The translations under genes and the position numbers were made by a program. The notes beneath the pieces were generated by a model. The model made no database searches and was not told the DNA's origin. It was given only the letters and a program-made list of their open reading frames with translations. Shown here piece by piece: positions 28,650 to 57,729 of a DNA stretch of 64,000 nucleotides (position 1 is its first letter; each line of letters begins with the position of its first letter). Source of the stretch: Escherichia coli (GTDB lineage: Bacteria; Pseudomonadota; Gammaproteobacteria; Enterobacterales; Enterobacteriaceae); NCBI RefSeq assembly GCF_024298765.1, contig NZ_CP101210.1; one strand, written 5' to 3'.

Positions 28650-28668
28650 TGGTGCCCGGACTCGGAAT
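28650..28668 (-). other. tRNA-Phe 3'-end remnant (19 nt, island attachment-site repeat)
   Basis: TGGTGCCCGGACTCGGAAT is the reverse complement of the 3' end of E. coli tRNA-Phe (…ATTCCGAGTCCGGGCACCA); sequence diverges immediately after, so no tRNA body is present here. Confidence 0.7.
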
Positions 28669-28915
28669 GAAACTGGTTATATAACCAATTGTTTTGTATC
28701 GACTGTTTTATCCTTGTTCTTTTTGAGGCCACCAATGAGGCCCCCATGTGCAATTCGAATTCTTTTGACGCTATAATCCCTCTTTCTTGTGGTTTGTTGT
28801 AATCATTTTGTCTGGTTCGATATGCTGAATCGCGGAATCGAAGTGACAACAAAATACAGAGATTTATAAAATACCTGGCTACCTGTGTTAGGGAGCGTTA
28901 ACGCACAGATTTTGT

Positions 28916-36308: not shown

Positions 36309-37193
36309 TCAGAACAGACGATCCCACAGTGTGACCAGCAAGTGGATAATGCGGTCCCGGGCCTTACGCAGAAGCTGTAACATCCAGGCCGGAAAGCTGA
36401 ATTGGGCAACGGCAGCGTCAAAGCTTTTCCCGATGGCGTCACCAAAAGTTTGTTGTGCGTGTTTCCGGGCCTGTTCAGAGCGGTTTTCCCCCCGGATATG
36501 TGAATAAACTGCGCTGGTTGCCTGTGGTGGCAGTGCGTGGATCATCAGCGACACCAGTGCCGGAAGATTCCAGCCGACAGGTGCGGCAACGGAGAGTACC
36601 GGAAATGATGACGGGAACAGGGGTGCCACCCGGGCTGTTACTGTCGCCAGTGAGAGTTCCTGCTGACGGGACGGGCATTTTTCTGTGTCGTTCCATTCTT
36701 CAGCAGGAAACACGCGATCGGCATGGCTGAGAACAAACAGAAAACGCGAGGGATCTGCACCTTCATTCAGTAAAAACTGATGCATGGCAATATCAGCAGC
36801 ATACGCACGTTCATCAGCCCGCAGGATCCAGATAATCAGATCCAGTTCCGGCAGTAACTGACGGTAAAGCTCCCGGTATTCCTGATCATGCTGCGGTGTC
36901 TCACCAATGCCGGGCATATCGACCAGCGTCATTCTGCGTTCACCGAGCTGCAGGGTAAGACGATGAGCCTGGCGGGTGCAGCCGTTCAGGGGATGCGTGG
37001 CGCAGATACGGGACTGAAAAATGGCATTACACAGACTGCTTTTGCCGGTGCCGGATTTACCCATAATGCCAATTACGGGCTCGTAATGAATAACACCGTG
37101 GAGATGTTCAAGGATTTTCTGGCGAATTTCTTCAGGAAGAAACGTCAGATATGATTTTACTTGTGCAGAGAGGGAAGAATGGCTGAATGACAT
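36309..37193 (-). CDS. GTP-binding protein (YfjP/YkfA/YeeP family)
   Basis: G1 motif GIMGKSGTGKSS, G3-like DMPGIGE; 294 aa. Confidence 0.8.
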   Translation of the reverse strand: MSFSHSSLSAQVKSYLTFLPEEIRQKILEHLHGVIHYEPVIGIMGKSGTGKSSLCNAIFQSRICATHPLNGCTRQAHRLTLQLGERRMTLVDMPGIGETPQHDQEYRELYRQLLPELDLIIWILRADERAYAADIAMHQFLLNEGADPSRFLFVLSHADRVFPAEEWNDTEKCPSRQQELSLATVTARVAPLFPSSFPVLSVAAPVGWNLPALVSLMIHALPPQATSAVYSHIRGENRSEQARKHAQQTFGDAIGKSFDAAVAQFSFPAWMLQLLRKARDRIIHLLVTLWDRLF

Positions 37194-37377
37194 ACCGGTA
37201 TCCTGTTGATTTCGCTGAACCGGATCACACTAATCCGGTTTATCATTCAGGTAATATGGACGTGAAAAATGATGGAATGTCTGAATTACGGACATGATTG
37301 TTAAAGTGTAATGGAGTATGAAGTGAGTTTTTCCGAACGGGAACTAATGACATACTGCGGTTTCAGGAGATGAGAGG

Positions 37378-38508
37378 ATGACCGGACGTAAAAACAAATG
37401 TGTCAGAAAAAATTGTAACAATCAGGTTTTCTCAGTAAAAATGGCAGTGGAGAAAAGACTGTGCAGAAAACATTATGAGAGGTTTTGTGAGCTCAAAAAA
37501 AGAAGAGAGCAAAATCCTGTTCACAGATTAAATGAAGCATTGCCAAGAAAGATAAAAGGACCAAAAAGTAAGAAAAAATTAGTAAAAGAAAGAGAAATCA
37601 TTAACAGCAGAAAAAAACATAAACAGGAGCAGGGACCATCGCTGACTGAACTTAATAAAAAAGTTCGTGAGATACTGAAAACTCCTGCATGGAGAACGCT
37701 GGAAACGAGAATTCGAAGAAACGGAATCACATTTAACTCAAAAGCAGAGTTAGATGCGCTTTCTGAACTTTATGCAATTTATTCATGGGTTTCATATTGC
37801 AAACGGGGCGATAATTATTCTGTGTGGTTTTTGAATTGTCCGGATGTAAATATAAACCTTCATGTGTGCGAATGCCGGTCTTCTGAAAGCGATTGTTATC
37901 TGCCATCTCGTTTTATTATTCTTCCAGCTCCATTAAGGCAAAAAGTAAAAAGAAAATACTCGGCTAATTCGTCTGGGGTACCAGGACATAATGATTCAAA
38001 AAGTCTTTATAAGACAGTTTTGTCTGTTTGTGGTGGGAAAAGAGAAACCGAAATGTTCTTTTATTCATTGCCAGTAAAGACTAATCATCATCCTTACTGG
38101 ATTAAAAGTGGTGTGGTTAAAAGATTCCCTCCTGTTTTTGGTTTGTTGTTTTATGAACAGGAAAGATTAACAGGAGGTGTTTTTCGTTATGTGTTGATAA
38201 GATTTTATAATACTTTTAAAGAGAATTTGTTTTTTGTTGAGATTGTATCGTGCTGTTTTCTTGTTGAGCTTTTTCATGATATTGATTCATTTTTTATAAA
38301 TCAACGATTAAGTAAGCTGGAAAGTTTTATAGATAAGTGGAGGGAGGGTAAAGAAATCTGGATAAAAGTATATTTACAACTGATACATACTATATTGGGA
38401 ATAACTGAAACAGAAAAACTCGTCAATCTATATAATTCATTTTTTACTGATAAAGTGGTTCTCTGGGATGAATCAGTAAAAAAAGTTAAGTGGATTTATG
38501 AGAAATAG
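37378..38508 (+). CDS. Hypothetical Lys-rich protein with Cys-rich N-terminus (orphan)
   Basis: 376-aa ORF, strongly AT-rich by eye; N-terminus CVRKNCNNQ...CRKHYERFC; no recognisable homolog. Confidence 0.45.
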   Translation: MTGRKNKCVRKNCNNQVFSVKMAVEKRLCRKHYERFCELKKRREQNPVHRLNEALPRKIKGPKSKKKLVKEREIINSRKKHKQEQGPSLTELNKKVREILKTPAWRTLETRIRRNGITFNSKAELDALSELYAIYSWVSYCKRGDNYSVWFLNCPDVNINLHVCECRSSESDCYLPSRFIILPAPLRQKVKRKYSANSSGVPGHNDSKSLYKTVLSVCGGKRETEMFFYSLPVKTNHHPYWIKSGVVKRFPPVFGLLFYEQERLTGGVFRYVLIRFYNTFKENLFFVEIVSCCFLVELFHDIDSFFINQRLSKLESFIDKWREGKEIWIKVYLQLIHTILGITETEKLVNLYNSFFTDKVVLWDESVKKVKWIYEK

Positions 38509-40013
38509 TACCATTTAACTGAAAGCCACCATAACGTCTTTTTGACTACATTTATGATAATGCGTCTCATTTTGTTTTCGTTTTTTTGTTCAGGGAAATT
38601 TTCCGAACATCAGTGATAATGAGGGTTTTGTTGTTTTTGTTTCTGCAATGTTTGAGGACTGTTCCTGGAGACGATTCGTTGCTTGTGAGCAAGAGGTGGT
38701 CCGCTTTACTGGACAAGTTTTGCATTTGTTGAGTGGTGAAATGGAAGTAAAAAGAGCCCCTTTCTGGCAATGGTTGAAAAAGTCAGTAGCGTGTGACAGT
38801 AAAAGCTAACATAAAGTGATTATCGTATGATTATGACAATGACTTATAACTTTTATGAAAAGAACAACAGAAACTACGAAGCCATAGCAGATTCCTGAGA
38901 CCATGTTTTCTGAGGTAGAGAAAATAATTCCAGAGTAAATCTGTTCTGTTTTTAGGACAGAAAACTCCATGCTGGCTGTAAAAGTGAAAAATTAACACCC
39001 AGTATGTATGGAAGTCTGAAGATGTTGAGAATGTCGGTATGATACTATATACACATATTTTACTAAGTATTTTTACTAAGCATTTCAGTAAGTGTTATAC
39101 ACGTATTTTCATAAACACTTCTACAATTGTTTTCGTTAAGCATTGCTATACACATCCAGTTTAGTAAATCTTTACGTTAACTAAATCAGTTTAATGCTGC
39201 TGTAAAACCTTTCTGCTTCAGCAATCAATCTGCTATTCGATTTTACTGATGTTACGTTTAACCTTTCCTGAGATTTCGAGTTTCGACGTTAGCATGAGAA
39301 AAGTATCTTTACGCTAAATCAACCCGAACTTTCCTGAAGTAATCTGACGTTCTTTTCGATGTGCTTACAACGATTCTGTTAAATGACTTTCTGGATGTTT
39401 TGATAACAATCAGATTTAGGCATTAACGATTCCTGACGTTTTTCTTTTCCGTGTAAGGTCATTGTTTTCGTCATGAGGTTTCTTCTTGCATTGCGAAAGT
39501 GTGATGAACGGTTTTGGTGTTTTGATTCAGATGAAGTTTACGTTATCGATGGTTAATCGTTTTTATGGTGCGTAGTGAAACGTAACGCTTTCAGGAAGGG
39601 AAAATCGATTCTGATGGGGATGATCGTGTAACGGCGTTATCTGTAAACAGGTTTTAAACATGTCATTCGCATCCGTGATTGAGTTGTGTGATTAAGCTGT
39701 AGGTTTTGGGGTTGTTGTTGATTTGCATTACCAGGAAGCGTTCTGGTTGCGTTTCTGGTGTTTTGTTTGAATGTTCTGTGGATCCTTTTCCCTTCTGACT
39801 TTTCTCGTTGTCTATGTCGTTTTTAAATCCATTCGCTGTTCTTGAGTGTTTTTACCCTGTGTGTAGAATTATCTTTTCGTTCCGGGATGGTTTGTTCCGT
39901 TTCAATCACTCTTAATCAGAAAGTTGTAGCATTGCTCAATGCCGGATGCCGTAAAGTTTTACCGCGGTGATTAATGATGTGAAGTCAATCCAAATCAACG
40001 GAGATCTCTCATC

Positions 40014-40745
40014 ATGAATCAACCAATACACAATGCTTACTGGTTATCCCGTTTTGACAGCCTTCTCGACAGTGCCCTGGCGCAGCACCGTGCCGTCTCG
40101 TTAATCCGGGTGGATTTACGTTTCCCTGAGTATATGCCTGTCACCATCATGGATCCCGATCCGGATTCAGCGGTGATTTCTCGTTTTTTTGCATCCCTGA
40201 AAGCCAAAATTCAGGCTTACCAGCGGAAAAAAAGATGTGCCAATCAGCGTGTGCATGCAACCAGCCTGGGTTATTTCTGGTGCCGGGAGTTCGGCAAGAT
40301 GTATGGCAGGAAACATTATCACGTGATATTACTGCTCAACAAAGATACCTGGTGCTCGCTCGGGGATTTCAGCGAACCGTCTTCGCTGGCGACGATGATC
40401 CAGGAGGCATGGTGCAGCGCCCTGCATCTTGAGCCCTGGCAGGGTAATGGACTGGTTCATTTTTCCAGGCGGACGCCTTTCCGTAAACCGACATCATCTG
40501 ATGCTCGCCCTTCTTCCGATGATACGCCTTTGTCGGGTGGATGTTCTGAAACCAGGAAGGTTTCAGACAAAAAGTCTGGTGAAGCCGCTGTTCTCTGGAT
40601 CAAGCGTGGTGATGTGGAAGCGATGCAGAAAGCCCGGAACAGAGCCAGTTATCTCGTGAAAAATGAAACGAAGTTGCATGATGGTTCAGGTCAACGTAAT
40701 TATGGTTGCAGTCGTGGGCCGGGGCGTCTACTGGATGGCAGGTGA
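40014..40745 (+). CDS. YfjJ/YagK-like (inovirus Gp2-family) protein
   Basis: 243 aa MNQPIHNAYWLSRFDSLLDSALAQHRAVSLIRVDLRFPEY...; resembles prophage-island YagK/YfjJ proteins. Confidence 0.6.
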   Translation: MNQPIHNAYWLSRFDSLLDSALAQHRAVSLIRVDLRFPEYMPVTIMDPDPDSAVISRFFASLKAKIQAYQRKKRCANQRVHATSLGYFWCREFGKMYGRKHYHVILLLNKDTWCSLGDFSEPSSLATMIQEAWCSALHLEPWQGNGLVHFSRRTPFRKPTSSDARPSSDDTPLSGGCSETRKVSDKKSGEAAVLWIKRGDVEAMQKARNRASYLVKNETKLHDGSGQRNYGCSRGPGRLLDGR

Positions 40746-41111: not shown

Positions 41112-41615
41112 TTATTGATAGTGTTTTATGTTCAGATAATGCCCGATGACTTTGTCATGCAGCTCCACCGATTTTGAGAACGACAGCGACTTCCGTCCCA
41201 GCCGTGCCAGGTGCTGCCTCAGATTCAGGTTATGCCGCTCAATTCGCTGCGTATATCGCTTGCTGATTACGTGCAGCTTTCCCTTCAGGCGGGATTCATA
41301 CAGCGGCCAGCCATCCGTCATCCATATCACCACGTCAAAGGGTGACAGCAGGCTCATAAGACGCCCCAGCGTCGCCATAGTGCGTTCACCGAATACGTGC
41401 GCAACAACCGTCTTCCGGAGACTGTCATACGCGTAAAACAGCCAGCGCTGGCGCGATTTAGCCCCGACATAGCCCCACTGTTCGTCCATTTCCTCGCAGA
41501 CGATGACGTCACTGCCCGGCTGTATGCGCGAGGTTACCGACTGCGGCCTGAGTTTTTTAAGTGACGTAAAATCGTGTTGAGGCCAACGCCCATAATGCGG
41601 GCAGTTGCCCGGCAT
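41112..41615 (-). CDS. insB: IS1 InsB (expressed as InsAB by frameshift)
   Basis: ...[64 protein letters not shown]... Confidence 0.9.
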
Positions 41616-41809
41616 CCGACGCCATTCATGGCCATATCAATGATTTTCTGGTGCGTACCGGGTTGAGAGGCGGTGTAAGTGAACTGTAGTTGCCATGTTT
41701 TACGGCAATGAGAGCAGAGATAGCGCTGATGTCCGGCAGTGCTTTTGCCGTTACGCACCACGCCTTCAGGAGCGGAGCAGGAAGGACATCTGATGGAAAT
41801 GGAAGCCAC
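41534..41809 (-). CDS. insA: IS1 InsA
   Basis: [43 protein letters not shown]... Confidence 0.9.
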
Positions 41810-42072: not shown

Positions 42073-42579
42073 GTGAGTCATATGAAGGCAACCAATATAG
42101 ACCCTCAACTGCTTGAAAAAGCCACGAGTATCTTTGCTGAGTTGGGCTTACCTATTGAGCAGGCTATTAACGTCTTTTTAGCTAAATCCGTTCAAGCCAA
42201 AGGTTTTCCGTTTTCTGTTGCTCTTGAAAATGAAGTAGAGACACGGGAAGTTGCACAAACGCAACACAATATCAGCAATGCAGAGATAACCGAAGCTATC
42301 CAAGACTTGGTTGAACATGCTCTACCACTGAGTGAAATAGAAAACCTCACGCAGCTAACCTATTGTCGCAACATTTTTGGGTTGTCATTCCCCGTGCTCA
42401 AACTGGCTAAATCATCACGGCCAGAAGACATTCGCAGTGCAGCCAAAGATGCCAAAGAGCGAAACCGCTACTCCACCACTAAAGTGGCCCAGCGAGATGA
42501 AAAAACCTATGTTATTTGCACCCAATGGACCGACAGACATCGTTCTGCATTTTGCCGTTGGCAAGCCATCTTTAGCTAG
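42073..42579 (+). CDS. RelB/DinJ-like antitoxin-domain protein with C-terminal extension
   Basis: N-terminus MKATNIDPQLLEKATSIFAELGLPIEQAINVFLAKSVQAKGFPF resembles DinJ/RelB RHH antitoxins; ~90-aa C-terminal extension unrecognised; no adjacent toxin ORF. Confidence 0.5.
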   Translation: MSHMKATNIDPQLLEKATSIFAELGLPIEQAINVFLAKSVQAKGFPFSVALENEVETREVAQTQHNISNAEITEAIQDLVEHALPLSEIENLTQLTYCRNIFGLSFPVLKLAKSSRPEDIRSAAKDAKERNRYSTTKVAQRDEKTYVICTQWTDRHRSAFCRWQAIFS

Positions 42580-42645: not shown

Positions 42646-44625
42646 ATGAACTTACAAGACAAAGAACAAAGCGCCAAACTCTCCAGTGCTATTTGGCGTA
42701 TGGCAGATGATTTATGGGGTGATTTCAAACACACCGATTTTGCGCGGATTATCCTGCCATTTTTGCTACTGCGTCGTATTGAATGCGTGTTAGAACCCAC
42801 CCGTGAGGAAGTTCGTAAGTTCTATCTGGCCGAAAAACAATCCGGCATAGACCTTGGTTTAGTGTTGCCAGAAATTGCGGGATTCGCCTTTTACAACACC
42901 AGTGAATATAGCCTAGAAACCTTAGGCGCGTCAGACACCGGCGACAACCTAGAACACTACATCAGCCAGTTCAGCAAAAACGTTCGTACCATCTTTGATG
43001 AGTTTAAATTTGGTCAAACCATAGAAGATCTGGAAAAAGCCAAGTTGCTGTATCGCATGGTAAACCATTTTGCCAACCTCGACTTGCATCCTGATGTAGT
43101 GTCTGACCGCGTATTATCAGATGCTTATGAAGAGCTGATTCTAAAGTTCGCCAGTTCGGTTAATGAAAAGGCCGGGGAATTTATGACCCCGCGTGATGCC
43201 GTGCGTCTTGCCACCAAACTGGTGCTGGCGGCGGATGAAGATATCTTTAGTGAAAAGGGTGTGATCCGCACCATCTATGACCCAACCTGTGGCACGGGCG
43301 GTTTCCTTTCCGATGCCATTAGCCAAATTGAAGAAATGGGCAGCAGCGCTAAAGTCGTGCCTTTTGGTCAAGAGCTCGACCCCGCGACCCATGCCATGGC
43401 GCTGACCAATATGATGATCCGCGGTTTTGATGCCAATAACATCAAGCAAGGCAACACCTTATCAGACGATCAGTTACGTGCCGACAAGTTTCACTACGGC
43501 CTTGCCAACCCGCCATTTGGCATTAAGTGGGAAAAAGCCAAGAAAGAAGTAGAACGTGAGCACAAACAGCTCAAATACGCCGGACGCTTTGGGCCAGGCC
43601 TGCCGAGTATTTCTGATGGTTCAATGCTGTTTTTACTGCACTTGGTATCAAAAATGGAAACGCCGGAAAATGGTGGTGGCCGAGTGGGTATAGTCCTTTC
43701 TGGCTCGCCACTGTTTAATGGCGATGCAGGCTCAGGCCCATCAGAAATCCGCCGTTGGCTGCTAGAACAAGACTTAGTCGAAGCGATTGTTGCCCTGCCA
43801 ACCGATATGTTCTTCAACACCGGCATTGGCACCTACATCTGGATTTTGACTAACCATAAAGAGCCAAGACGCAAGAATCAGGTGCAACTGATTAACTTGG
43901 CAGATATTTGGACTCCCATGCGTAAATCGCAAGGCGATAAGCGCAAGTACCTGAGTGATGAACAGATTGACGATATTGTCCGTGCGTACGATGGCTTTGA
44001 AGCCAGTGACAACTGTAAGATCTTCCAGACTACTGATTTTGCCTACCGTAAAGTCACCATTCAGCGTCCACTGCGTGCCAAACTAGATATTACCGCTGCG
44101 GGCATTGCTGCATTTGTGCAGCAAGATACGTTTAAAAAACTCAAACCAGAGCAACAAGCGGCATGGGTACAATACCTCACCGATAACCTTGGCCTTCAGC
44201 CTTATGAATGGGCACGTTTGGCGGTTAAGAAGAATAACAATAAGGGTGACTTTGGTAAGTGCTCAAAAGCACTGGCTACGGCCTTAACTGCGCACTTTGT
44301 AAAAATTGATCCGCAATTTGAGCCTGCACTGGATGAAAAAGGCCAAGTGATCGCCGACCCTAAACTCAAAGACACCGAAAGCATTCCTTTTGACCGCGAC
44401 GTTGAAGATTACTTCGCACAAGAGGTGCTGCCACATGTACCGGATGCCTTTATTGATCACTCAGTGCGTGATGAAAAAGACGGCGAAGTGGGCATTGTCG
44501 GTTATGAAATTAACTTTAACCGCTATTTCTACCAATACGTGCCACCACGCGAGTTGAGTGTGATTGATCGTGAGCTAAAAGCATGTGAAGCGCGCATTCA
44601 GGCTCTGCTGAATGAGGTGGCGTAA
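42646..44625 (+). CDS. hsdM: Type I restriction-modification system, DNA methyltransferase subunit
   Basis: AdoMet motif DPTCGTGGFL and catalytic NPPF (GLANPPFGIKWEK); 659 aa. Confidence 0.9.
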   Translation: MNLQDKEQSAKLSSAIWRMADDLWGDFKHTDFARIILPFLLLRRIECVLEPTREEVRKFYLAEKQSGIDLGLVLPEIAGFAFYNTSEYSLETLGASDTGDNLEHYISQFSKNVRTIFDEFKFGQTIEDLEKAKLLYRMVNHFANLDLHPDVVSDRVLSDAYEELILKFASSVNEKAGEFMTPRDAVRLATKLVLAADEDIFSEKGVIRTIYDPTCGTGGFLSDAISQIEEMGSSAKVVPFGQELDPATHAMALTNMMIRGFDANNIKQGNTLSDDQLRADKFHYGLANPPFGIKWEKAKKEVEREHKQLKYAGRFGPGLPSISDGSMLFLLHLVSKMETPENGGGRVGIVLSGSPLFNGDAGSGPSEIRRWLLEQDLVEAIVALPTDMFFNTGIGTYIWILTNHKEPRRKNQVQLINLADIWTPMRKSQGDKRKYLSDEQIDDIVRAYDGFEASDNCKIFQTTDFAYRKVTIQRPLRAKLDITAAGIAAFVQQDTFKKLKPEQQAAWVQYLTDNLGLQPYEWARLAVKKNNNKGDFGKCSKALATALTAHFVKIDPQFEPALDEKGQVIADPKLKDTESIPFDRDVEDYFAQEVLPHVPDAFIDHSVRDEKDGEVGIVGYEINFNRYFYQYVPPRELSVIDRELKACEARIQALLNEVA

Positions 44626-45911
44626 TGAATGCTGGCAACATAGTAGATGCTTTCGTATCTGACTCGAAATGGAACTCAGTACCAGCTAAACGTTTATTTA
44701 CGAGTAGCAAAGAAATCAATCAAGGAATGAAAGAATCTAATCGTCTTGCACTAACAATGAAAGGTGTCATAAACCGCTCGTTAGACGATTTACAAGGACT
44801 TCAATCTTCTGATTACTCTGTTTATCAGATTTTTGAAAAAGATGACTTAGTTTTTAAGCTCATAGATCTTGAAAATATAAAGACTAGCCGAGTGGGGATT
44901 GTGCATGAACGAGGAATAATGAGCCCTGCATACATCCGTGTTTCAGCGAGTTCAAATAGCATCTACCCAAGGTTCTATTACTGGTACTTTTTTGCTCTAT
45001 ACCTAACCAATATTTATAACAAACTGGGTGGAGGAGTTCGTCAGAACCTAACAGCTGGTGATCTTTTAGAAATACCTGTTCCACTGATTGATATTTCATT
45101 ACAGAAGCAGGTTAGCACATTCCTTGATCGCGAAACCCAGCGCATCGACAGTCTGATCGAGGAAAAGCAGACCTTTATTAAGCTGCTCAAAGAAAAACGC
45201 CAAGCACTGATCAGCCATGTGGTCACAAAGGGGCTCTATCCCAATGTGGAGATGCAGGACTCTGGCATCGAGTGGATTGGGCAAGTGCCGAAGCATTGGG
45301 AAGTCAAAAAGATAAAGCATATTTGCTCCAACTTTATGTATGGAACCTCTCAAGACTGTAACCAGTCTGATGTTGGCTATCCTGTTCTCAGGATACCAAA
45401 CATCAAGAGTACCAATGTTGATTTTGAAGATCTCAAATATGCAAATATCAGTGATGTTGATGCTTTAACTTATCTTTTATCAAGAGGCGACATTTTAGTC
45501 ATCAGAACTAACGGTAACCCTAATCTGGTCGGCCAAAGCGCGCTTTTTGATTCAAATGGGCAGTATTTATTTGCGTCGTACCTAATAAAGTTAACACCAA
45601 AGCAAGGAGTGGATACTAGCTTCTTAGTGGAAGCGATGAACTCACTATCTGTTCGTCAAGCATTAACATTTCAGTCAAGAACATCGGTAGGTAACTACAA
45701 CCTGAGCATTCCTTCACTAGCTAATACAAGTATTGCTATCCCACCAATTGATGAGCAAAAGACAATAACGAATTACTTGAGTGCAGCAACGATAAACATT
45801 GATTTACTGATTCAAGAGACTGATAAATCGATTGATCTTCTAAAAGAACACCGCACATCGCTGATCAACGCGGCTGTCACAGGAAAAATAGACGTCAGGG
45901 AGGCGGTGTAA
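44625..45911 (+). CDS. hsdS: Type I restriction-modification system, specificity subunit
   Basis: 428 aa with two target-recognition domains separated by conserved repeats (LIEEKQTFIKLLKEKRQALISHVVTKGL / LLIQETDKSIDLLKEHRTSLINAAVTGKIDV); start overlaps hsdM stop (TAATG). Confidence 0.85.
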   Translation: MNAGNIVDAFVSDSKWNSVPAKRLFTSSKEINQGMKESNRLALTMKGVINRSLDDLQGLQSSDYSVYQIFEKDDLVFKLIDLENIKTSRVGIVHERGIMSPAYIRVSASSNSIYPRFYYWYFFALYLTNIYNKLGGGVRQNLTAGDLLEIPVPLIDISLQKQVSTFLDRETQRIDSLIEEKQTFIKLLKEKRQALISHVVTKGLYPNVEMQDSGIEWIGQVPKHWEVKKIKHICSNFMYGTSQDCNQSDVGYPVLRIPNIKSTNVDFEDLKYANISDVDALTYLLSRGDILVIRTNGNPNLVGQSALFDSNGQYLFASYLIKLTPKQGVDTSFLVEAMNSLSVRQALTFQSRTSVGNYNLSIPSLANTSIAIPPIDEQKTITNYLSAATINIDLLIQETDKSIDLLKEHRTSLINAAVTGKIDVREAV

Positions 45912-48900
45912 TGGCTGCACATCATGAAGTGCATTTTGAACAATATATTACCGAGCAGTTGGTGAACAATGGCTGGAAAGAAGGCCATTCCTGCCACTAT
46001 GACCAGCAACGCGCCCTTTACCCGCAAGATGTCATGGATTGGGTAAAGGCCACCCAGCCAGATGCCTGGCACAAACTGAATAAACTGCATGGTGTGAATG
46101 CCGAGCAGGTGCTGTTGGAGCGTTTGGAAAAAGCCCTCTCTTCCCACAAAGCTGGCAGTAAAACAGGTGGCACCATTAATGTGCTGCGTAAAGGCTTTAC
46201 CATTGCAGGTTGCGGCACGATTGCCATGGGCCAACGCAAACCCGAAGATGCGCGCAATGAAGAGCGTATAGCCCGTTATGAGCACAACATTTTGCGCGTG
46301 GTGCGCCAACTGAAATATTGCCCGACTCGCGAGTGGGAAATTGACTTGGTGTTCTTTATCAACGGTCTACCCGTTGCCACCGCCGAGCTAAAAACCGATT
46401 TTACCCAGTCGCTAGAATCGGCGATTGCGCAGTACAAAGAGGATCGTCTGCCCGTTGACCCAAAAACCAAGCGTAAAGAGCCGCTGTTAACCTTTAAACG
46501 CGGTGCAGTGGTACATTTTGCCATGTCTGATACAGAAATCGCCATGGCGACCAAACTGGCGGGAGAAAATACCTATTTTCTGCCCTTCAATAAAGGCCAT
46601 GATGGTTCTACCTCTGATTTGCCCGTACACATCAACTTGCCGGGTGAAGATGGAGAGTATCCGGTCAGCTATTTTTGGCAAGAAATTGCCCAAAAAGATA
46701 ATTGGCTACGCATTTTCTACAGCTTTGTGTATGTCGAAACCAAAGAGGTTGCCGATAGCAATGGCAAGGTTGAGCGTAAGGAAACACAGATTTTTCCGCG
46801 TTATCATCAGTTAGCCGCAGTCAACAAGATGATTGATGATGCCCGCCAGAACGGCGCAGGCATGCAGTATCTTTGTGAGCACAGCGCCGGTTCGGGAAAA
46901 ACCTCTACCATAGCCTGGACGGCCCATGATTTGATTCGTTTACGCAGCACCGATGGTAAAGCGGTCTTTAAATCAGTGATCATTGTGACCGACCGCACCG
47001 TGCTGGATTCGCAGTTGCAAGATGCGGTGCAACAGCTGGATCATCAATATGGGGTGATTAAGGCGATTGATCGCGAAAAGAGCAGCGAGTCGAAATCAAA
47101 ACAGCTGACTGAAGCGCTATTGACTGGCACGCCGATCATTGTAGTGACGATTCAAACCTTCCCATATGCGTTAGAAGCGATTCTGACCAATCAATCTTTG
47201 GCACAAAGTAACTTTGCGGTGATCATCGATGAAGCACACACCTCGCAAACAGGCTCTACAGCCAAAGGGTTACGCGCAGCGCTTACTCTAAACCTTAGCC
47301 CTCAAGAGTTGGAGCAAATGAGCATTGAGGACATTCTTACTAAGGTGCAAGAAGCGCGCGCCATGCCCAAGAACGTTTCGCACTTTGCTTTTACGGCAAC
47401 ACCCAAGCACAGCACCAAGATGTTGTTTGGCCGCCCGAAAGACCCTAACCAACCAGTGTCAGATGACAATCTTCCTGAATCGTTCCACCTCTACACCCAA
47501 CGTCAGGCCATTGATGAGGGTTTTATTCTTGATGTGCTGGAGAATTACACCCACTACGATACAGCCTACAAAATTGGTGAGAACAATCTGGATGAGAAGC
47601 GCGTAGACAGCAAACAAGCTCGCCGCGCGTTGGCGCGCTGGATGTCACTGCACCCAACCACGGTCAGCCAAAAAGTCGAATTTATTATTAAGCACTTCAA
47701 GGCCAATATCGCTCACCTACTGGAAGGTGAAGCCAAAGCCATGGTGGTCACATCGGGCAGGCCACAGGCGGTGAAATACAAGCTTGCTTTTGATAAATAC
47801 ATTAAAAAGCATGGTATTGAAGGTATCCAAGCCTTGGTTGCCTTCTCGGGCAAAGTCCCCGGCAAAGATTTGGGTGATGAAGACAGCCAAGACCCGCTAG
47901 AAATTGATTTCGATAAAGAGTACACCGAGTACAACTTAAACCCAGACACGCACGGGGCTGACCTGCGCCATGAGTTTGAGAAAACCGAATATCGCGTCAT
48001 GTTAGTCGCCAACAAGTTCCAAACGGGCTTTAATCAACCAAAACTGGTTGCCATGTATTTGGATAAGAAAATATCCGATGTAGAAGCGGTGCAAACGCTG
48101 TCTCGCCTAAACCGCACCTATCCAGGCAAAGACACAACCTTCGTGATTGATTTTGTTAACGATCCACAAACCATTCTCAATGCGTTCAAAAAGTACGACA
48201 AAGGCGCGCAGCTTAATGAAGTGCAAGATGTGAACGTCATCTATGACATCAAAGATATTTTGGATGAACAGAACATATACAACCATCAAGATTTAGAGTT
48301 GTTTAAGCAAGCGCGTGGTAAATCGATTCTCGGCCAATCACCTGACAAAAAGCCACACGCGCACAAGAAACTGCTAGCTGCCACACAACGCCCTACCGAT
48401 GTGTTCAACGTTAAGCTCAAAGAGCTGGTTGATGCTGCAAACCATTGGGATCAGCAATACAACAAAGCGCACCTTGCGGGTGATGAAAAAGCGGCGAACT
48501 ACGCAGAATCTCAGCGCAGTGATTTCACCAAGCAGCGCGAAGCACTAATGCGTTTTAAGTCAGATTTAGCTCGATTTGTGAAGCACTATAGCTATATGGC
48601 GCAATTGATTGAGTTTGGTGATCCTGAACTGGAAAACTTTGCCGCGTTTGCTCATTTGCTATCACGTCGATTGAAAGGGGTAACACCAGAAAACATCGAT
48701 CTCAGTGCACTGGTACTAGAAAAATTCAAAATCAAATACGACAAAGAGCCGCTTCCAGAAGCGTTTAATCAGGTACTTGAACCTATCCGCCCCAACTATA
48801 ACGACCCTGCGGATCGTGAACAGGCATTTCTTGCCGATATCATTCGCCGCCTAAACGAACTGTTTGGCGATGTCGGCGACGAACCCGGTCGCCGAAACTT

Positions 48901-49147
48901 TGCCAACGGTACTATTACGCGTGTCACCCAAAATCCAATTGTGGTTGAGCAGATAGAAAAGCACGACAAGTCGATTGCCCTCAAAGGCGACTTGCCGCAA
49001 GCGGTGAAGCAAGCCGTTGTGCAGGCTCTGCTGAAAGAAGGTGATATAGCCCGAACGCTACTCAAAGACCCACAAGTTATGGCAAGTTATGTTGAGTTGA
49101 TTTTTGACATGATGAAGCAAGGTGCAGAACAGGCGGCGGTGAAATAA
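45911..49147 (+). CDS. hsdR: Type I restriction-modification system, restriction/helicase subunit
   Basis: 1078 aa; Walker A SAGSGKTST, DEAH box (IIDEAHTSQ); start overlaps hsdS stop (TAATG). Confidence 0.9.
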   Translation: MAAHHEVHFEQYITEQLVNNGWKEGHSCHYDQQRALYPQDVMDWVKATQPDAWHKLNKLHGVNAEQVLLERLEKALSSHKAGSKTGGTINVLRKGFTIAGCGTIAMGQRKPEDARNEERIARYEHNILRVVRQLKYCPTREWEIDLVFFINGLPVATAELKTDFTQSLESAIAQYKEDRLPVDPKTKRKEPLLTFKRGAVVHFAMSDTEIAMATKLAGENTYFLPFNKGHDGSTSDLPVHINLPGEDGEYPVSYFWQEIAQKDNWLRIFYSFVYVETKEVADSNGKVERKETQIFPRYHQLAAVNKMIDDARQNGAGMQYLCEHSAGSGKTSTIAWTAHDLIRLRSTDGKAVFKSVIIVTDRTVLDSQLQDAVQQLDHQYGVIKAIDREKSSESKSKQLTEALLTGTPIIVVTIQTFPYALEAILTNQSLAQSNFAVIIDEAHTSQTGSTAKGLRAALTLNLSPQELEQMSIEDILTKVQEARAMPKNVSHFAFTATPKHSTKMLFGRPKDPNQPVSDDNLPESFHLYTQRQAIDEGFILDVLENYTHYDTAYKIGENNLDEKRVDSKQARRALARWMSLHPTTVSQKVEFIIKHFKANIAHLLEGEAKAMVVTSGRPQAVKYKLAFDKYIKKHGIEGIQALVAFSGKVPGKDLGDEDSQDPLEIDFDKEYTEYNLNPDTHGADLRHEFEKTEYRVMLVANKFQTGFNQPKLVAMYLDKKISDVEAVQTLSRLNRTYPGKDTTFVIDFVNDPQTILNAFKKYDKGAQLNEVQDVNVIYDIKDILDEQNIYNHQDLELFKQARGKSILGQSPDKKPHAHKKLLAATQRPTDVFNVKLKELVDAANHWDQQYNKAHLAGDEKAANYAESQRSDFTKQREALMRFKSDLARFVKHYSYMAQLIEFGDPELENFAAFAHLLSRRLKGVTPENIDLSALVLEKFKIKYDKEPLPEAFNQVLEPIRPNYNDPADREQAFLADIIRRLNELFGDVGDEPGRRNFANGTITRVTQNPIVVEQIEKHDKSIALKGDLPQAVKQAVVQALLKEGDIARTLLKDPQVMASYVELIFDMMKQGAEQAAVK

Positions 49148-49701
49148 TGAATACTGCGTTTCGGGTTTTACTTACGTTCAATGCAACATCACTACTAGTG
49201 ATTATCTTTGCGGTACAAAAAGGGTACTCACTCGGATATTTCTTTGGTGGTTTCGCTTGCTTCGATTGGATAGCAGCACTTCCGAACGCAGTATCATATT
49301 TACTCTATTTTCTTATCCCTGTTTTATCGACTGGATTGAGTATTTGGCTGAGTAAGTATTTGGGTAAAGACGATTTTAAGGCGGGTGAAGTAGCGAGTAT
49401 TGAGCATGCCAATAACAGCTTCCTACCAAGTTATTTGGGTTACTTTTTCGTGGCGTTGAGCATTGGTAACTGGGAGACATTGTGGTTTGTTTATGGCGTT
49501 TTGTTTGTTTTTACTCTCTTATCGCAAGCACTCTACTTTAACCCATTGTTTTTACTGTTTGGTTATGAGTTTTATAACATTACAACCAAAAACGGAACGG
49601 CCATTTTCCTTATTAGCCGAGAGCGCTACAAGAAGCCAGATGACATCGAAATATCATTGGCTTATCGAATCAATAATTACACATTTATCGAGCGAGGATA
49701 A
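49147..49701 (+). CDS. Small polytopic membrane protein (about 4 predicted TM helices), candidate defense component (KwaA-like architecture)
   Basis: 184 aa with hydrophobic segments LLVIIFAV, WIAALPNAVSYLLYFLIPVLSTGLSIWL, YFFVALSIGNW, LWFVYGVLFVFTLLSQALYF; ATG overlaps hsdR stop (TAATG); AT-rich. Confidence 0.55.
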   Translation: MNTAFRVLLTFNATSLLVIIFAVQKGYSLGYFFGGFACFDWIAALPNAVSYLLYFLIPVLSTGLSIWLSKYLGKDDFKAGEVASIEHANNSFLPSYLGYFFVALSIGNWETLWFVYGVLFVFTLLSQALYFNPLFLLFGYEFYNITTKNGTAIFLISRERYKKPDDIEISLAYRINNYTFIERG

Positions 49702-50543
49702 TGATGGACCATGTACTGGCACATATAAAAACTAGAGCAAAAAAACGCATTTTCAAATTGGTTTCTGATCAATCTCTTTTTGATACCGTCACAATCGACT
49801 TAAATGCCTGTATTCCATACAATCCAGACCATAACCTTGACGAAGACTCATGGTTTAAAATTGAAGACTTTAGTCAAAAAGAGTTTTGTATTGAACTGCT
49901 AAAAAAAGACTATGATTCAAAAGACTACGATGACTTAACCAAAGATAACTTCGCCAAGATCGCCTACTTATTTGCAATTCAAGGTAATGATTTTTACTTT
50001 CAAAAAATCACTCCAAGCCTATTCGTAAAACGCAAAACGCTTGTTTTTGGTGAAGCCGCAGAAATTGAGAAGAGCCAAACACGTTTAGTAATAAACGCCT
50101 TACCTGATGCAGTGTACTTCAAAGTGGCCGATACCTTGATATTCAAAAATCTGGCAACGATCTCGAGCATTTTTAAAGGTATCGATGAGTTGTACAAGGA
50201 AGCAACAAAAGAAGAAGTTGAGCAGTTTTTAGATGCACAGTTTATAGAGTTGGGTAATGACTACAACGTAGATAGCGTCTCAAAACCTAATAGAAAACGT
50301 ATTGGCCTTGCTATGGCAACACTTGATGCGATGTCTGCTGACGATAAAGCTAACATGCTTGATTATATCGACGGTTACTGCGGTGAACAGAAGCTGAAAT
50401 TCGATAAAGAAAATCAGAAGTTTGAAATATCTAATGACGATGAGTTGAAGTTACTGCTTTATGGCATTGAACAACGCTTCTATACGACCCCGTTTGGCAA
50501 AGAAAAAAGGCTCGCTAACTCTGTAACCGCTATGGATAAATAA
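49701..50543 (+). CDS. Soluble acidic protein, partner of the membrane protein (KwaB-like position)
   Basis: 280-aa ORF, no TM segment, no recognised catalytic motif; ATG overlaps preceding stop (TAATG), GAGG SD. Confidence 0.55.
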   Translation: MMDHVLAHIKTRAKKRIFKLVSDQSLFDTVTIDLNACIPYNPDHNLDEDSWFKIEDFSQKEFCIELLKKDYDSKDYDDLTKDNFAKIAYLFAIQGNDFYFQKITPSLFVKRKTLVFGEAAEIEKSQTRLVINALPDAVYFKVADTLIFKNLATISSIFKGIDELYKEATKEEVEQFLDAQFIELGNDYNVDSVSKPNRKRIGLAMATLDAMSADDKANMLDYIDGYCGEQKLKFDKENQKFEISNDDELKLLLYGIEQRFYTTPFGKEKRLANSVTAMDK

Positions 50544-50578
50544 TAGCCCATTATCAGTAACATATGAAGGTTGATTCA

Positions 50579-51613
50579 ATGGCCGATAACATCCCACAAG
50601 CTCCTCAAGGTGAGTTTGTTCTTTTCACCAGTGCTGATGGTCAAACCCGCGTTGAGTGTCGTTTTGAGTCTGACACCTTGTGGCTTTCTCAGGCTGCAAT
50701 GGCAGAGCTTTATCAAGTTAGCTCTCAAGCAATCACCCAACACGTAAAAGCTGTCTATTCTGAAGAAGAGCTTGAGCAAATTTCAACTTGTAAGGATTAC
50801 TTACAAGTTCAACTGGAAGGTGGCAGAGAAGTAAAGCGAAGCATTCGTCACTACAGTCTTCCGGTTATTCTTGCAGTAGGATACCGAGTTCGCTCAACAC
50901 GTGGCACCCAGTTCCGCCAATGGGCAACCAGAATGTTGCAAGAATACCTAATCAAAGGATTCGTCATGGATGACGAGCGCCTGAAAAATCCGCCCATTGG
51001 CCATTCTGCTGTGCCAGATTACTTTGATGAAATGCTGGAACGCATTCGTGATATCCGAGCTAGTGAGCGTCGCGTTTATCTGCGAGTCAAAGAAATCTTT
51101 ACCATGGCTGCTGATTACGAGCCATCTAACCAAGAGACCAACCGCTTCTTCCAAACCATTCAGAATAAGCTGCATTATGCTTGTACGCATATGACGGCTG
51201 CTGAGCTTATCGCCAGCCGTGTGGATGCCAGTAAGCCGGATATGGGCTTAACCAGCTATAAAGGCGATGAAGTGCGCAAGACAGACGTTACTGTTGCCAA
51301 GAACTATTTGCGTGAAGACGAAATCAAAGAGCTTAATCGCATCGTCAATATGTGGCTCGACTTTGCTGAAGACCAAGCACTGCGTCGCAAGCAGGTATTT
51401 TTACAGGACTGGGCCGATAAGCTTGACCAGTTCTTGAGTTTTAACGATAGAGATGTATTAAACGGTGCAGGAAAAATCTCCAAGAAAGACGCTGATGACA
51501 AAGCGAAATTGGAGTTTGACCGCTTTGCCCAGCAGCGCCGTCGTTTAAAAGAAGCCGAAGGCGCACGGGCCAATATCGCAGCCCTCAAGGCCATACTAAA
51601 AAAAGATAAATAG
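50579..51613 (+). CDS. rhuM: RhuM-family virulence-associated protein
   Basis: ...RHYSLPVILAVGYRVRSTRGTQFRQWATRMLQEYLIKGFVMDDERL... matches the conserved RhuM core as I recall it. Confidence 0.7.
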   Translation: MADNIPQAPQGEFVLFTSADGQTRVECRFESDTLWLSQAAMAELYQVSSQAITQHVKAVYSEEELEQISTCKDYLQVQLEGGREVKRSIRHYSLPVILAVGYRVRSTRGTQFRQWATRMLQEYLIKGFVMDDERLKNPPIGHSAVPDYFDEMLERIRDIRASERRVYLRVKEIFTMAADYEPSNQETNRFFQTIQNKLHYACTHMTAAELIASRVDASKPDMGLTSYKGDEVRKTDVTVAKNYLREDEIKELNRIVNMWLDFAEDQALRRKQVFLQDWADKLDQFLSFNDRDVLNGAGKISKKDADDKAKLEFDRFAQQRRRLKEAEGARANIAALKAILKKDK

Positions 51614-51670: not shown

Positions 51671-52057
51671 CTATAAAGGATTATCCATCTTAAAATCGTC
51701 GATATCGCCTGTCATTTTGAATAGATTGGTGTCATTCCAACGGCACAGTTGTCTAACCCGCATTAGATTTGAGTTGGCTCTGCGGATTATTGAGAAAGCA
51801 TCTTCAACAGCAGTAATCACCGATTTTTCCCAATCTTGTGCTCGGGTAAAGGTGCTTTGTGAATAGCGATAATTGCCCTCACGGGGGAGGTAATGGCTGA
51901 TCACCTGGTATTTGTCAGAATTCTTTTTAGGTTTAAACTCGTTGTAAACCCAGAAAATTTCGAGTTTTTTGTTTCTTTGCCTTACACGACAACCAAAATG
52001 ACCTGGGTAGCCTTCAGAGTTTTTACCTCTATGTGCAACGTTGTTCAGCCAGAACAA
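51671..52057 (-). CDS. Hypothetical protein (possible gene fragment, TTG start)
   Basis: 128-aa ORF with non-ATG start; no homolog recognised; upstream in-frame sequence closed by a stop. Confidence 0.25.
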   Translation of the reverse strand: MFWLNNVAHRGKNSEGYPGHFGCRVRQRNKKLEIFWVYNEFKPKKNSDKYQVISHYLPREGNYRYSQSTFTRAQDWEKSVITAVEDAFSIIRRANSNLMRVRQLCRWNDTNLFKMTGDIDDFKMDNPL

Positions 52058-52399: not shown

Positions 52400-54050
52400 T
52401 CAATAACCCCCCTGTGTCAGCATAGTTGTCGCCTCAATTTTTTAAGGAGATAACAATGCCAGGACAACCAATACCAAATGAGCTCAAAGAAAAAGGACTG
52501 ATATGGCTTTTGCCACCATACTGTTGGTCACACCGTCAGATAGCCCGGAAGCTGAAGATCAGTGCCTCAGTTGTATCAAAATGGAGATGTGAGTTAGTGG
52601 AGCAAGGACTTTTACCTGAAAATGAAAAGATTACCTCCGTTGATGTTGAAGACTGGACACCGGAGCGTCGATTCTCAGTTGTTCTTGAGACGGCTACGCT
52701 GTCTGTCACGAACGGTGCAATAGTGGATCACTTTTCATCCGTCGTTGACACTGTCAGAAATGGAGCTTGCCGATTATTGCCGACGCATGGGATTGTTTGT
52801 TGAACAGGTTAAAGAATGGCGGGCTATCTCAATTCAGGCGCATGAAAAAAATTGACGGAAAATATTCGAACAGACAGGGCATTGCGTGACGCAAAAAATA
52901 AGTTACGAGAACTGGAGAAAGAGCTTAAGCGCAAAGATAAAGCTCTGGCGGAAGCTGCGGCCCTGCTTATATTAAGGGAAAAGTTCAATGCCCTCTGGGA
53001 CAACAGCGAGGAAGACTGCCCCCTCTCCTGGAGCGGCATAAAATTATTTCTCTTGTCCGTGAGGCCGTCGCCAACGGCGCCCGGAAAGGTCAGGCTTGTA
53101 GGTGTATCGGTATTTCTATTCGGACACTTCAGCGCTGGACTAATGGCAACATCATCACCACGGACCGAAGATCCGATACTGTAAACAGCTCTCCCCGAAA
53201 TAAGCTGTCAGAAGCGGAAAGATTGCGAATACTGGAGTTGTGCAACTCTCCAGAGTTTGCATCCTTGCCTCCAAATGTGATCGTACCAACTCTGGCAGAC
53301 AGAGGTATTTATATTGCTTCTGAATCAAGTTTTTATCGTGTACTGAAATCAGCCAAGCAGTTGAAGAAACGATCCCGTGAATGCCAGTATAAACTGGCCT
53401 GATGTACTCAGGGCCGTTGCACCGAATCAAGTCTGGAGTTGGGACATCAGCTATTTGCCGTCCTGGGTCAGAGGCCAGCATTTTTACCTCTATATGATCG
53501 TCGATATTTACAGTCGCAAAATTATTGCTGCTGAGGTATTTGCCAGCGAATCTGGAAAACATGCAGCAGAACTACTCCAGCGTGCAGTATGGAATGAAAA
53601 ATGTTCATCCAACAATCTGGTACTCCATTCTGATAACGGTGGTCCCATGCGCAGTGACACGTTGTTGGCGAAAATGTATGCGCTTGGTGTGCTAAGTTCT
53701 TATTCCCGGCCAAGAGTCAGTAATGATAATCCTTACTCAGAATCTTTGTTCCGGACTCTCAAATATTGTCCCTGGTGGCCTGAGAACGGTTTTCGCACTA
53801 TTGATGATGCCAGAGTATGGGTAAACCAGTTTTGTAAACTGGTACAACTTTGAACATAAGCACAGCGGGATCAAATACGTCACGCCAGCCGAGCGTCATC
53901 AAGGTAATGACATGAAAATACTGGCAGCCTGAAAAGCGGTATACCAGCTAGCTCGCGAGCAACATCCTGAACGTTGGGGCAAGTATCTACGTAACTGGAA
54001 CTACATATCAGAAGTCTACCTGAATCCAGAAAAAGAGGCTGCATAACGTA
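52400..54050 (+). mobile_element. Degenerate IS3-family insertion sequence (frameshifted orfA/orfB)
   Basis: OrfA-like HTH segment (52456-52803), leucine-zipper segment in another frame (LRELEKELKRKDKALAEAAALLILREKFNALW), and DDE-domain pieces (VWSWDISYLP...LHSDNGGPMRS...SNDNPYSESLFRTLKY) spread over three frames. Boundaries approximate. Confidence 0.7.
52456..53853 (+). pseudogene. IS3-family transposase orfAB, disrupted by frameshifts
   Basis: Transposase domains recognisable but distributed over three reading frames with internal stops. Confidence 0.65.

Positions 54051-54986: not shown

Positions 54987-57729
<2,743 letters not shown>

Follow-up and report, generated by a model that had tools for sequence, protein, structure and literature searches.

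Organization of the locus

The Escherichia coli DNA analysed here, a stretch of 64,000 nucleotides (the window), carries a Type I restriction-modification operon within a block of genes bounded on the left by an insertion sequence. The features of this block, including the two target recognition domains (TRDs) of the specificity subunit, are as follows.

41112..41809, minus strand: IS1 transposase, bounding the remnant module on the left (annotated in RefSeq at the FY10 locus, which is 99.6% identical)
42073..42579, plus strand: RelB/DinJ-like ORF, 168 aa, no toxin partner (Pfam RelB E=2.6e-5; RefSeq 'RelB/DinJ family antitoxin')
42646..44625, plus strand: hsdM, m6A methyltransferase subunit, 659 aa (Pfam HsdM_N and N6_Mtase E=9e-58; PADLOC MTase_I PDLC03029 E=1.9e-243)
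44625..45911, plus strand: hsdS, specificity subunit, 428 aa, ATG start, equal to WP_000991122.1
44625..45115, plus strand: TRD1 cassette, residues 1 to ~164, GC 0.375; breaks DNA homology to V. parahaemolyticus loci (44621-45116)
45116..45300, plus strand: central conserved region, helix 157-202 and linker, GC 0.514; recombination frame between the TRDs
45301..45815, plus strand: TRD2 cassette, residues ~226-397, GC 0.377; breaks DNA homology to related loci L003-5 (45300-45816)
45816..45911, plus strand: C-terminal conserved helix, residues ~398-428
45911..49147, plus strand: hsdR, restriction and translocase subunit, 1078 aa (Pfam HSDR_N, ResIII/SWI2_SNF2, T1R_D3-like)
49147..49701, plus strand: kwaA-like membrane protein, 184 aa (PADLOC KwaA E=9e-16); start overlaps the hsdR stop (TAATG)
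49701..50543, plus strand: kwaB-like protein, 280 aa (PADLOC KwaB (DUF4868) E=7e-14); start overlaps the kwaA-like stop
50564..51613, plus strand: RhuM-family protein, PADLOC defence candidate PDC-S05 (Pfam Virulence_RhuM E=1e-113; PDC-S05 E=8e-167)
51671..52057, minus strand: mobI(A/C)-like gene, shortened, 128 aa (RefSeq annotation; Pfam MobI in related loci)

In Type I systems, one HsdS and two HsdM subunits form the methyltransferase, which together with two HsdR subunits becomes an ATP-dependent translocating endonuclease. Each TRD reads one half of a bipartite site and two antiparallel conserved helices fix the length of the spacer. Where incoming DNA carries unmethylated sites, the enzyme translocates and cleaves at a distance. 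The operon in the window has the order hsdM-hsdS-hsdR and is tightly overlapping, with TAATG overlaps at all four of the four gene junctions. HsdM contains the motifs DPTCGTGGF and NPPF288, and HsdR contains GSGKT327, DEAH440 and D145-x14-E160-x-K162; the two subunits correspond to a gamma-class m6A methyltransferase and to a PD-(D/E)xK nuclease with an SF2 motor. Scores against the corresponding curated families fell below their cut-offs, at 101 bits for HsdM against TIGR00497 (cut-off 243) and 167 bits for HsdR against TIGR00348 (cut-off 285), and the classical families IA-IE yielded distant matches only, to EcoKI and EcoR124I structures. A phase-variable Type I system, either SSR-controlled or with a shufflon hsdS, was considered and rejected because hsdM and hsdS contain no tandem repeats (the sole array is one of 19 bp in hsdR) and there is no second hsdS; a search for inverted repeats longer than 26 nt also found none.

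The specificity subunit

An earlier note on this DNA had read the gene at 44625-45911 as an hsdS with two TRDs and the usual conserved repeats, and this reading was confirmed in each part. The ORF encodes two TRDs and two conserved helices, and an alignment of the segment 140-201 to the segment 358-419 scores 90, compared with 32 +/- 5 for 200 shuffles. Pfam Methylase_S (PF01420) matches two stretches of the protein (E=8e-17) and PADLOC Specificity_I matches its full length (E=4e-97). An AlphaFold2 model (mean pLDDT 88.8) comprises two globular domains and long helices at residues 157-202 and 375-418. The best Foldseek matches to this model were the solved HsdS structures 1yf2, PacII-S 7vru_C, EcoKI-S 2y7c and 5ybb_D, with E values of about 1e-22 to 1e-17, and the range over these together with 3okg and 7bst_A was 2.5e-22 to 1.8e-11; a search of solved structures by sequence gave distant EcoKI and M. 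jannaschii matches only. The protein combines two TRDs, two helical regions and the shared fold with adjoining hsdM and hsdR genes, as in Type I HsdS proteins, and the ORF is almost certainly an ordinary and already catalogued member of this class.

The same note had described the module as compositionally distinct from the backbone, which holds for all three subunit genes. The GC content of hsdS is 0.402, that of hsdM 0.476 and that of hsdR 0.480, compared with 0.528 for the first 36 kb of the window. Within hsdS, the two TRDs lie ~10-14 points under their own frame (0.514 in the central conserved region and 0.469 in the C-terminal region), so that the module is distinct from the backbone and the TRDs more so than their frame. 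The hsdS gene is located in a horizontally acquired, lower-GC module.

Island context of the operon

DNA homology to Vibrio and Salmonella islands extends from position 41901 or earlier, the left edge of the tested segment, to 52132. In intact islands of Salmonella and other hosts the genes are arranged trmE-int-HTH-DUF927-alpA-mobI-rhuM-kwaB-kwaA-hsdR-hsdS-hsdM-relB, and related loci L007 and L019-L038 have the complete backbone; V. parahaemolyticus islands have the same frame with other cargo after hsdR. The relB-like ORF lies upstream of hsdM in most of the related islands examined (165-170 aa in L003-5 and L007-12), is replaced by a 58-aa HTH_17 ORF in L006, and is a candidate regulator of the operon. 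The mobI product has 128 aa here and 194-197 aa in most related islands, and the shortened gene identifies an IncC-mobilisable island as the source of the module. Type I restriction-modification systems are often found between xis-86-85 and mobI in the MGIVchHai6-like group B of these islands (Rivard et al. 2020, PMC7449626).

We found no integrase, xis, rep-like genes, tRNA gene or trmE in the window, which does not show the arrangement of an MGIVchHai6-like island (int-xis-86-85...mobI at trmE or yicC) and contains only the shortened mobI and the cargo. As the backbone is absent and these elements are kept, the window holds a remnant and is not itself a member island. The relB-hsdMSR-kwaAB-rhuM-mobI block is the cargo of an IncC-mobilisable island of the MGIVchHai6-like kind, usually integrated at trmE, of which the E. 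coli window keeps only an IS-flanked relB-to-mobI remnant within a composite island.

The divergent Kiwa-like kwaA and kwaB genes abut the end of hsdR by overlap. The KwaA-like protein matches NCBIfam KwaA at E=1e-5 and 25 bits, below the curated cut-off of 100, and has three hydrophobic segments in a crude hydropathy scan; newer RefSeq annotations name this 184-aa product 'KwaA family protein'. The 280-aa KwaB-like protein had no Pfam or NCBIfam match at default thresholds.

Distribution and reassortment of the TRDs

Of 5,426 complete E. coli genomes, 76 carry an hsdS gene 100% identical to this one, in every case within the same hsdMSR allele, and the HsdS protein is found on at least 1,000 contigs. 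Carrier strains include 2009C-3133 (CP013025), CFSAN064036 (CP028166), FORC_031 (CP013190) and SMS-3-5. A plasmid-borne allele was rejected, since no TRD was matched over its full length at more than 43.5% identity in a protein search of 72,556 plasmids. Both TRDs recur, at 95-100% identity and joined to different partner TRDs, in HsdS proteins of Vibrio, Salmonella and Shewanella. TRD1 is 99-100% identical in proteins with six other TRD2 types (seven in all), and TRD2 is 95-99% identical in Vibrio proteins with four other TRD1 types (five in all). The corresponding breakpoints in the DNA are at 44621/45116 and 45300/45816. The allele is a mosaic: its two TRD cassettes circulate among Gammaproteobacteria on a single conserved frame, as expected of ordinary reassortment.

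Probable target of the specificity subunit

We agree with the earlier note that the TRD sequences alone yield no readable target. Insight into specificity is provided by Salmonella Senftenberg ATCC 43845 (CP016837 / CP019194; P0122), whose HsdS is identical to the E. coli protein at 426 of 428 residues. The E. coli protein differs by N205Y in the linker and by R327Q within TRD2, the latter derived in E. coli. The SMRT methylome of the Senftenberg strain comprises three Type I motifs with three assigned MTase ORFs (Nguyen et al. 2017, PMC5347186). One of these motifs, ACYN6GTTC, was assigned to MTase ORF BFF41_00175 (Table 1 of that paper), was methylated at 99.5% and 99.9% on the two strands, and was not marked as new to REBASE; the other two were flagged as unique to the strain. 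All of these motif-to-MTase assignments were made by REBASE inference, not by knockout (PMC5347186).

The identity of BFF41_00175 was reconstructed by counting genes from oriC, with the use of Salmonella LT2 gene numbers and with CP019194 assumed to start at dnaA. An insert of 52.3 kb lies downstream of mnmE and begins at 30,172 (PMC5347186), and in the related locus L010 hsdM begins 3.3 kb inside the mdtL-side edge of the island. The reconstructed hsdM position is ~33.5 kb, or roughly gene 32-35, and the locus tag number 00175 divided by 5 gives 35. From this positional reconstruction we infer that BFF41_00175 is the hsdM of this island. It would be another gene if the Mu-like prophage lay on the mdtL side; a position between HTH_17 and mid-int was ruled out, as collinearity between L010 and L011 extends over the full 21.3 kb, and the prophage must lie beyond mid-int, between mid-int and dnaA.

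The target of the E. coli HsdS is most likely 5'-ACY(N6)GTTC-3', with m6A predicted on both strands, TRD1 putatively reading ACY and TRD2 putatively reading GTTC. TRD2 has low-identity matches to each of the two EcoKI TRDs (37 and 51 bits), and the better match, to EcoKI residues 213-420 at 51 bits, is the best by sequence among solved structures; this EcoKI domain recognises GTGC (N6 spacer), which differs from GTTC at a single base. The module contains no ACYN6GTTC site compared with ~2.5 expected, a deficit that is not significant. In the searchable literature, neither the ACYN6GTTC string nor its half-sites were found outside the Senftenberg paper (PMC5347186). We regard it as probable that a conventional Type I HsdS in an island remnant, with ACY(N6)GTTC as its likely target, best explains the locus as a whole.

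Alternative interpretations

The earlier note had suggested a bipartite target not yet characterised, and this is probably wrong in that the protein is catalogued and its ortholog belongs to a strain with a published ACYN6GTTC methylome. It had also stated that TRDs identical to those of an already characterised HsdS would refute the suggestion. The Senftenberg ortholog, at 426/428 residues and with a motif not flagged as new, essentially provides this as far as can be told, being nearly identical and joined to its motif through the inferred link to hsdM. The HsdS is already known, and a claim of novelty for it does not hold. An uncharacterised target could arise if the Senftenberg motif belonged to another system or if R327Q altered a half-site, and we consider this unlikely. 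One substitution in a TRD may in principle be enough to alter or loosen recognition of a half-site, and R327Q is a derived change within TRD2; however, residue 327 varies (R, L or Q) among TRD2 copies that are otherwise 95-99% identical, which suggests tolerance. The suggestion draws support from the literature, in that neither this HsdS protein nor a motif assigned to it in E. coli is named in any searchable paper: our literature search found no paper for WP_000991122.1, E. coli methylome papers (O111 STEC, ST101, ST131 EC958) that describe other Type I systems, none that names the hsdS gene, and no usable resource for TRD or half-site prediction. Among solved HsdS structures whose target is known, the nearest is EcoKI, and it too is a low-identity match. 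Against these points stand the 99.5%-identical ortholog from a strain with a published methylome and the many carrier genomes that are closed assemblies, as long-read kinetic data from closed-genome projects are routinely deposited in REBASE.

It is also improbable that the HsdS recognises either of the two remaining Type I motifs from Senftenberg, CGCA(N8)TCNG or GAA(N7)RTAC. The locus-tag mapping is indirect and the strain has three motifs for three MTase ORFs, which leaves room for such an exchange. However, BFF41_20045 and BFF41_21025 correspond to approximately genes 4009 and 4205, ~4 Mb from the trmE island, and the classical hsd locus is presumably near gene 4030 on the LT2 map. The tags of dam, yhdJ and mod (02205, 02695 and 17760) fit a record running from oriC and on through the trmE island. 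Both motifs are unique to the strain in REBASE whereas hsdS is widespread, and the HsdS has no sequence match to EcoR124I HsdS, which reads GAA with an N6 spacer.

Two further proposals, either of which we would hold with little confidence, are that R327Q has shifted or relaxed the GTTC half-site in the 76-genome E. coli clone, or that the kwaAB-like genes work with the Type I enzyme. In the first case the E. coli clone would methylate a target unlike that of its Salmonella and Vibrio progenitors. In the second, the kwaA-like and kwaB-like genes, which travel with hsdR from Vibrio to E. coli, would be more than neighbouring cargo, for example a membrane-triggered partner acting on HsdR-cut DNA.

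It is very unlikely that the module is a silent relic in E. coli, severed by IS1 from its island and promoter and directing neither methylation nor restriction. In favour of such a relic, IS1 is 264 bp upstream of the relB-like ORF, mobI is shortened, there is no int, xis or DUF927 gene, and a promoter and terminator scan gave nothing above shuffled background. Against it, none of the seven ORFs from relB through rhuM is disrupted and all are at least 99% identical in 76 genomes that come from unrelated strains and hosts, the catalytic motifs are intact, and ~170 bp upstream of the relB-like ORF (from at least 41901) are still homologous to intact islands.

Implications and comparison with known systems

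With ACY(N6)GTTC as its probable target, the system would help to predict barriers to transformation, conjugation and phage infection in the ~1.4% of E. coli genomes with this module. The module illustrates how IncC-mobilisable islands move ready-made restriction-modification specificities and bundled defence genes among Vibrio, Salmonella and E. coli. The current understanding of Type I systems is unchallenged, and the value of these findings is mostly in annotation.

Among related loci, that of S. Senftenberg has relB, hsdM, hsdR, kwaA-like, kwaB-like, rhuM and mobI as neighbours in common with E. coli, but the Senftenberg copy lies in an intact island next to trmE that also has int, alpA and a DUF927 gene, while the E. 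coli copy is IS-bounded and elsewhere on the chromosome. MGIVchHai6-like islands share with the window mobI and the position of the Type I cargo, with integration at trmE seen in related loci, and differ in that the window is without an integrase, xis, rep-like genes or a trmE junction. Sibling alleles in V. cholerae, V. parahaemolyticus, V. vulnificus, Salmonella Emek and Shewanella (P0002-P0024) share the frame, whose central region is 88-98% identical, and one TRD at 90-100% identity. Their other TRD is unrelated (20-31%), so only one half-site should be common.

The target of EcoKI is AAC(N6)GTGC. EcoKI HsdS (Type IA; PDB 2y7c) has the same domain plan and fold as the HsdS in the window (Foldseek E=1.3e-19), but the two are only ~17% identical over the structural alignment, and the gene order is R-M-S in EcoKI and M-S-R here. 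Given this low identity, the M-S-R order and an HsdM below the TIGR00497 cut-off, a close relationship of the system to the classical IA family is improbable.

Organization of the module and identity of HsdS

The specificity gene lies within a co-directional series, hsdM, hsdS, hsdR and the KwaA-like and KwaB-like open reading frames, in which every junction is a TAATG overlap.

Features of the module and its flanks
41112-41809, minus strand: IS1, left flank of the module
42073-42579, plus strand: RelB/DinJ-like ORF, 168 aa, ~65 bp upstream of hsdM
42646-44625, plus strand: hsdM, HsdM_N and N6_Mtase domains, NPPF and DPTCGTGGF motifs
44625-45911, plus strand: hsdS, ATG start, 428 aa
45911-49147, plus strand: hsdR, HSDR_N and SF2 motor, GSGKT, DEAH and D..ExK motifs
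49147-49701, plus strand: KwaA-like ORF, 184 aa (PADLOC KwaA, E=9e-16)
49701-50543, plus strand: KwaB-like ORF, 280 aa (PADLOC KwaB/DUF4868, E=7e-14)
50564-51613, plus strand: RhuM-family gene (PADLOC candidate PDC-S05, E=8e-167)
51671-52057, minus strand: shortened mobI(A/C)-like gene, 128 aa versus 194-197 aa in most related islands
about 52456-54046: IS3 pseudogenes, right flank of the module

In the HsdS product, two separate segments match Pfam Methylase_S (E=8e-17), and the PADLOC Specificity_I profile is matched over its full length (E=4e-97). Residues 140-201 align with residues 358-419 (score 90; shuffled controls 32 +/- 5), and the two segments are the conserved helical regions typical of an HsdS. 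In an AlphaFold2 model (42 homologues; mean pLDDT 88.8) the chain forms a pair of globular domains and a pair of helices, each 44-46 residues long, and every top Foldseek match of the model is an S subunit of known structure (1yf2, PacII-S, EcoKI-S, 5ybb, 3okg and EcoR124I-S). Profile matches, repeat, model and structural neighbors together uphold the description of this gene, in the earlier note, as an HsdS with two target-recognition domains (TRDs).

No toxin gene adjoins the RelB/DinJ-like ORF, and a 165-170-aa ORF occupies its position in most related islands seen (loci L003-5, of V. cholerae type, and L007-12); rather than acting as an antitoxin, this protein may control transcription of the R-M operon. 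Downstream of the module, IS3-family pseudogenes enclose a group II intron reverse transcriptase/maturase gene (ltrA in the annotation of FY10, a 99.6% identical E. coli locus; about 55550-57073, minus strand).

Base composition and phase variation

The earlier note had proposed that the module is compositionally distinct, and this was borne out by a GC content of 0.37-0.48 across the block versus 0.53 in the first 36 kb of the window. Within hsdS, GC is 0.375 in TRD1 and 0.377 in TRD2, and 0.514 and 0.469 in the conserved frame. The lowest-GC stretch of the window, at 37001-40000 (0.33-0.39), holds a 376-aa ORF (37378-38508) that matched nothing in Pfam or PADLOC and is hypothetical in the FY10 annotation, followed by an inovirus Gp2 / YagK-YfjJ-family gene at 40014-40745. 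A phase-variable Type I system was ruled out because no simple-sequence tracts, second hsdS or long inverted repeats were found around hsdS.

Reassortment of target-recognition domains

Per-domain identity was computed over the best 120 HsdS homologues. Copies of TRD1 (residues 1 to about 164) with 99-100% identity occur in V. cholerae, V. parahaemolyticus, Salmonella Emek, Shewanella and other hosts, in HsdS proteins whose TRD2 shares no more than 25-31% with the E. coli domain; further Vibrio HsdS share TRD2 at 95-99% and have a TRD1 that is 21-30% identical. Clustering combined TRD1 with seven TRD2 types and TRD2 with five TRD1 types. DNA homology is interrupted only across 45300-45816 against the V. 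cholerae-type loci and only across 44621-45116 against the V. parahaemolyticus loci. This is the usual pattern of TRD cassettes being exchanged while the frame stays conserved.

Cargo downstream of hsdR

Both Kiwa-like ORFs fall below the NCBIfam cut-off, have no Pfam match at default thresholds and are hypothetical in most RefSeq records; this divergent pair is apparently expressed as the tail of the Type I R-M operon. The pair is kept in Salmonella and V. cholerae-type islands, and V. parahaemolyticus islands instead carry an AAA_15/SMC protein and a 265-aa ORF after hsdR, where the window has the Kiwa-like pair and RhuM. In one related locus (L020) the whole block is replaced by a different R-M system and a Shedu-like (SduA_C) gene, with RhuM retained. 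This variation between islands argues that the pair is swappable cargo and no integral part of the Type I enzyme. The RhuM-family gene (present in the window, L003, L009 and the full-backbone loci L019-L038) adjoins mobI in island variants with the KwaAB-like pair and is missing from the V. parahaemolyticus variants L006-L008. In E. coli SMS-3-5 (L001), the leuX island that contains the R-M module also has, ~8 kb further downstream (locus 26212-29145), a canonical kwaA and a kwaB that is split by ISVsa5, and therefore holds two Kiwa-type loci.

Island origin and distribution

An identical relB-hsdMSR-kwaA-kwaB-rhuM-mobI block is found in intact islands of Salmonella and several other hosts, which adjoin trmE a few kb from dnaA, and the V. 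parahaemolyticus islands have the order yidC-trmE-int-HTH-DUF927-alpA-relB-hsdMSR-cargo-mobI with the same hsd frame. Such architecture is that of group B MGIVchHai6-like islands (Rivard et al. 2020, PMC7449626); these are mobilised by IncC plasmids, and Type I R-M systems are "often" encoded in their variable region. What remains in the window is therefore a decayed MGIVchHai6-like island, embedded as a remnant in a composite island; the shortened mobI and the flanking IS1 and IS3 pseudogenes mark the module as a stranded fragment of an IncC-mobilisable island. The chromosomal sites of the block in E. coli differ, being the leuX island in SMS-3-5 and a position beside yicL/nlpA in FY10, which we take to be the selC region.

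Of 5,426 complete E. coli genomes, 76 carry hsdS at 100% DNA identity, including SMS-3-5, 2009C-3133, CFSAN064036 and FORC_031; the whole hsdMSR occurs in exactly the same 76, with the same allele every time and never plasmid-borne. At least 1,000 contigs encode exactly this protein (WP_000991122.1, "restriction endonuclease subunit S"), and Salmonella, Enterobacter and Cronobacter have near-identical versions of it.

Recognition sequence

We agree with the earlier note that the recognition sequence cannot be read from the sequence by eye. The HsdS of S. Senftenberg ATCC 43845 (CP016837; also CP019194, same strain) shares 426 of 428 residues with that of the window, and the SMRT methylome of this strain has three Type I motifs, assigned to methyltransferases by REBASE inference and not by knockout (Nguyen et al. 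2017, PMC5347186).

Type I motifs of S. Senftenberg ATCC 43845 (PMC5347186)
ACYN6GTTC: BFF41_00175, not flagged unique in REBASE
CGCAN8TCNG: BFF41_20045, flagged unique in REBASE
GAAN7RTAC: BFF41_21025, flagged unique in REBASE

According to the same study, 52.3 kb of DNA are inserted "downstream of mnmE", at 30,172-82,470 (PMC5347186). In this strain hsdM starts 3.3 kb inside the mdtL-side edge of the island, which would put it at ~33.5 kb and make it roughly gene 32 to 35 in order; among the locus tags, BFF41_00175 is number 35. Read by Pfam family and length, the genes left of the island are adeP, yieF, yieE, yidZ and mdtL, which we take to be the enterobacterial stretch running from oriC through mnmG, atp, glmUS and pst to trmE. 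Tag numbers for dam, yhdJ and mod (genes 441, 539 and 3552) agree with the oriC-to-trmE orientation and, by LT2 numbering, would put the classical hsd locus near gene 4030, which matches BFF41_20045. As an independent line, if CP019194 starts at dnaA, ~34.4 kb are unaccounted for between mid-int and dnaA, which with the 17.3-kb island gives 51.7 kb, near the published insert length. In this assembly hsdR, the kwaB-like gene, the DUF927 gene and int are uncalled, yet the DNA is collinear with L011, a related locus, at 98.8% identity; the missing calls probably reflect assembly indel errors and not real pseudogenes.

Among solved structures of known specificity, TRD2 best matches EcoKI HsdS, whose corresponding domain we take to recognise GTGC (N6 spacer), a half-site that differs from GTTC by a single base. 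From gene position and tag count, tag orientation, insert length and this match, with BFF41_00175 mapped to hsdM by position, we consider 5'-ACY(N6)GTTC-3' a likely target of the HsdS. One caveat on this assignment is that the E. coli allele carries N205Y (linker) and R327Q (TRD2), which set it apart from every Salmonella, Enterobacter and Vibrio copy examined; Y205 and Q327 are the derived state, and R, L and Q are all found at position 327 when near-identical copies of TRD2 are compared.

The uncharacterised specificity proposed in the earlier note is thus probably not the case, given the Senftenberg ortholog and a methylome motif not flagged as unique. The ORF at 44625-45911 encodes a textbook HsdS that public databases already contain; the mobile island that carried it is of a known kind, and its target is probably already listed.
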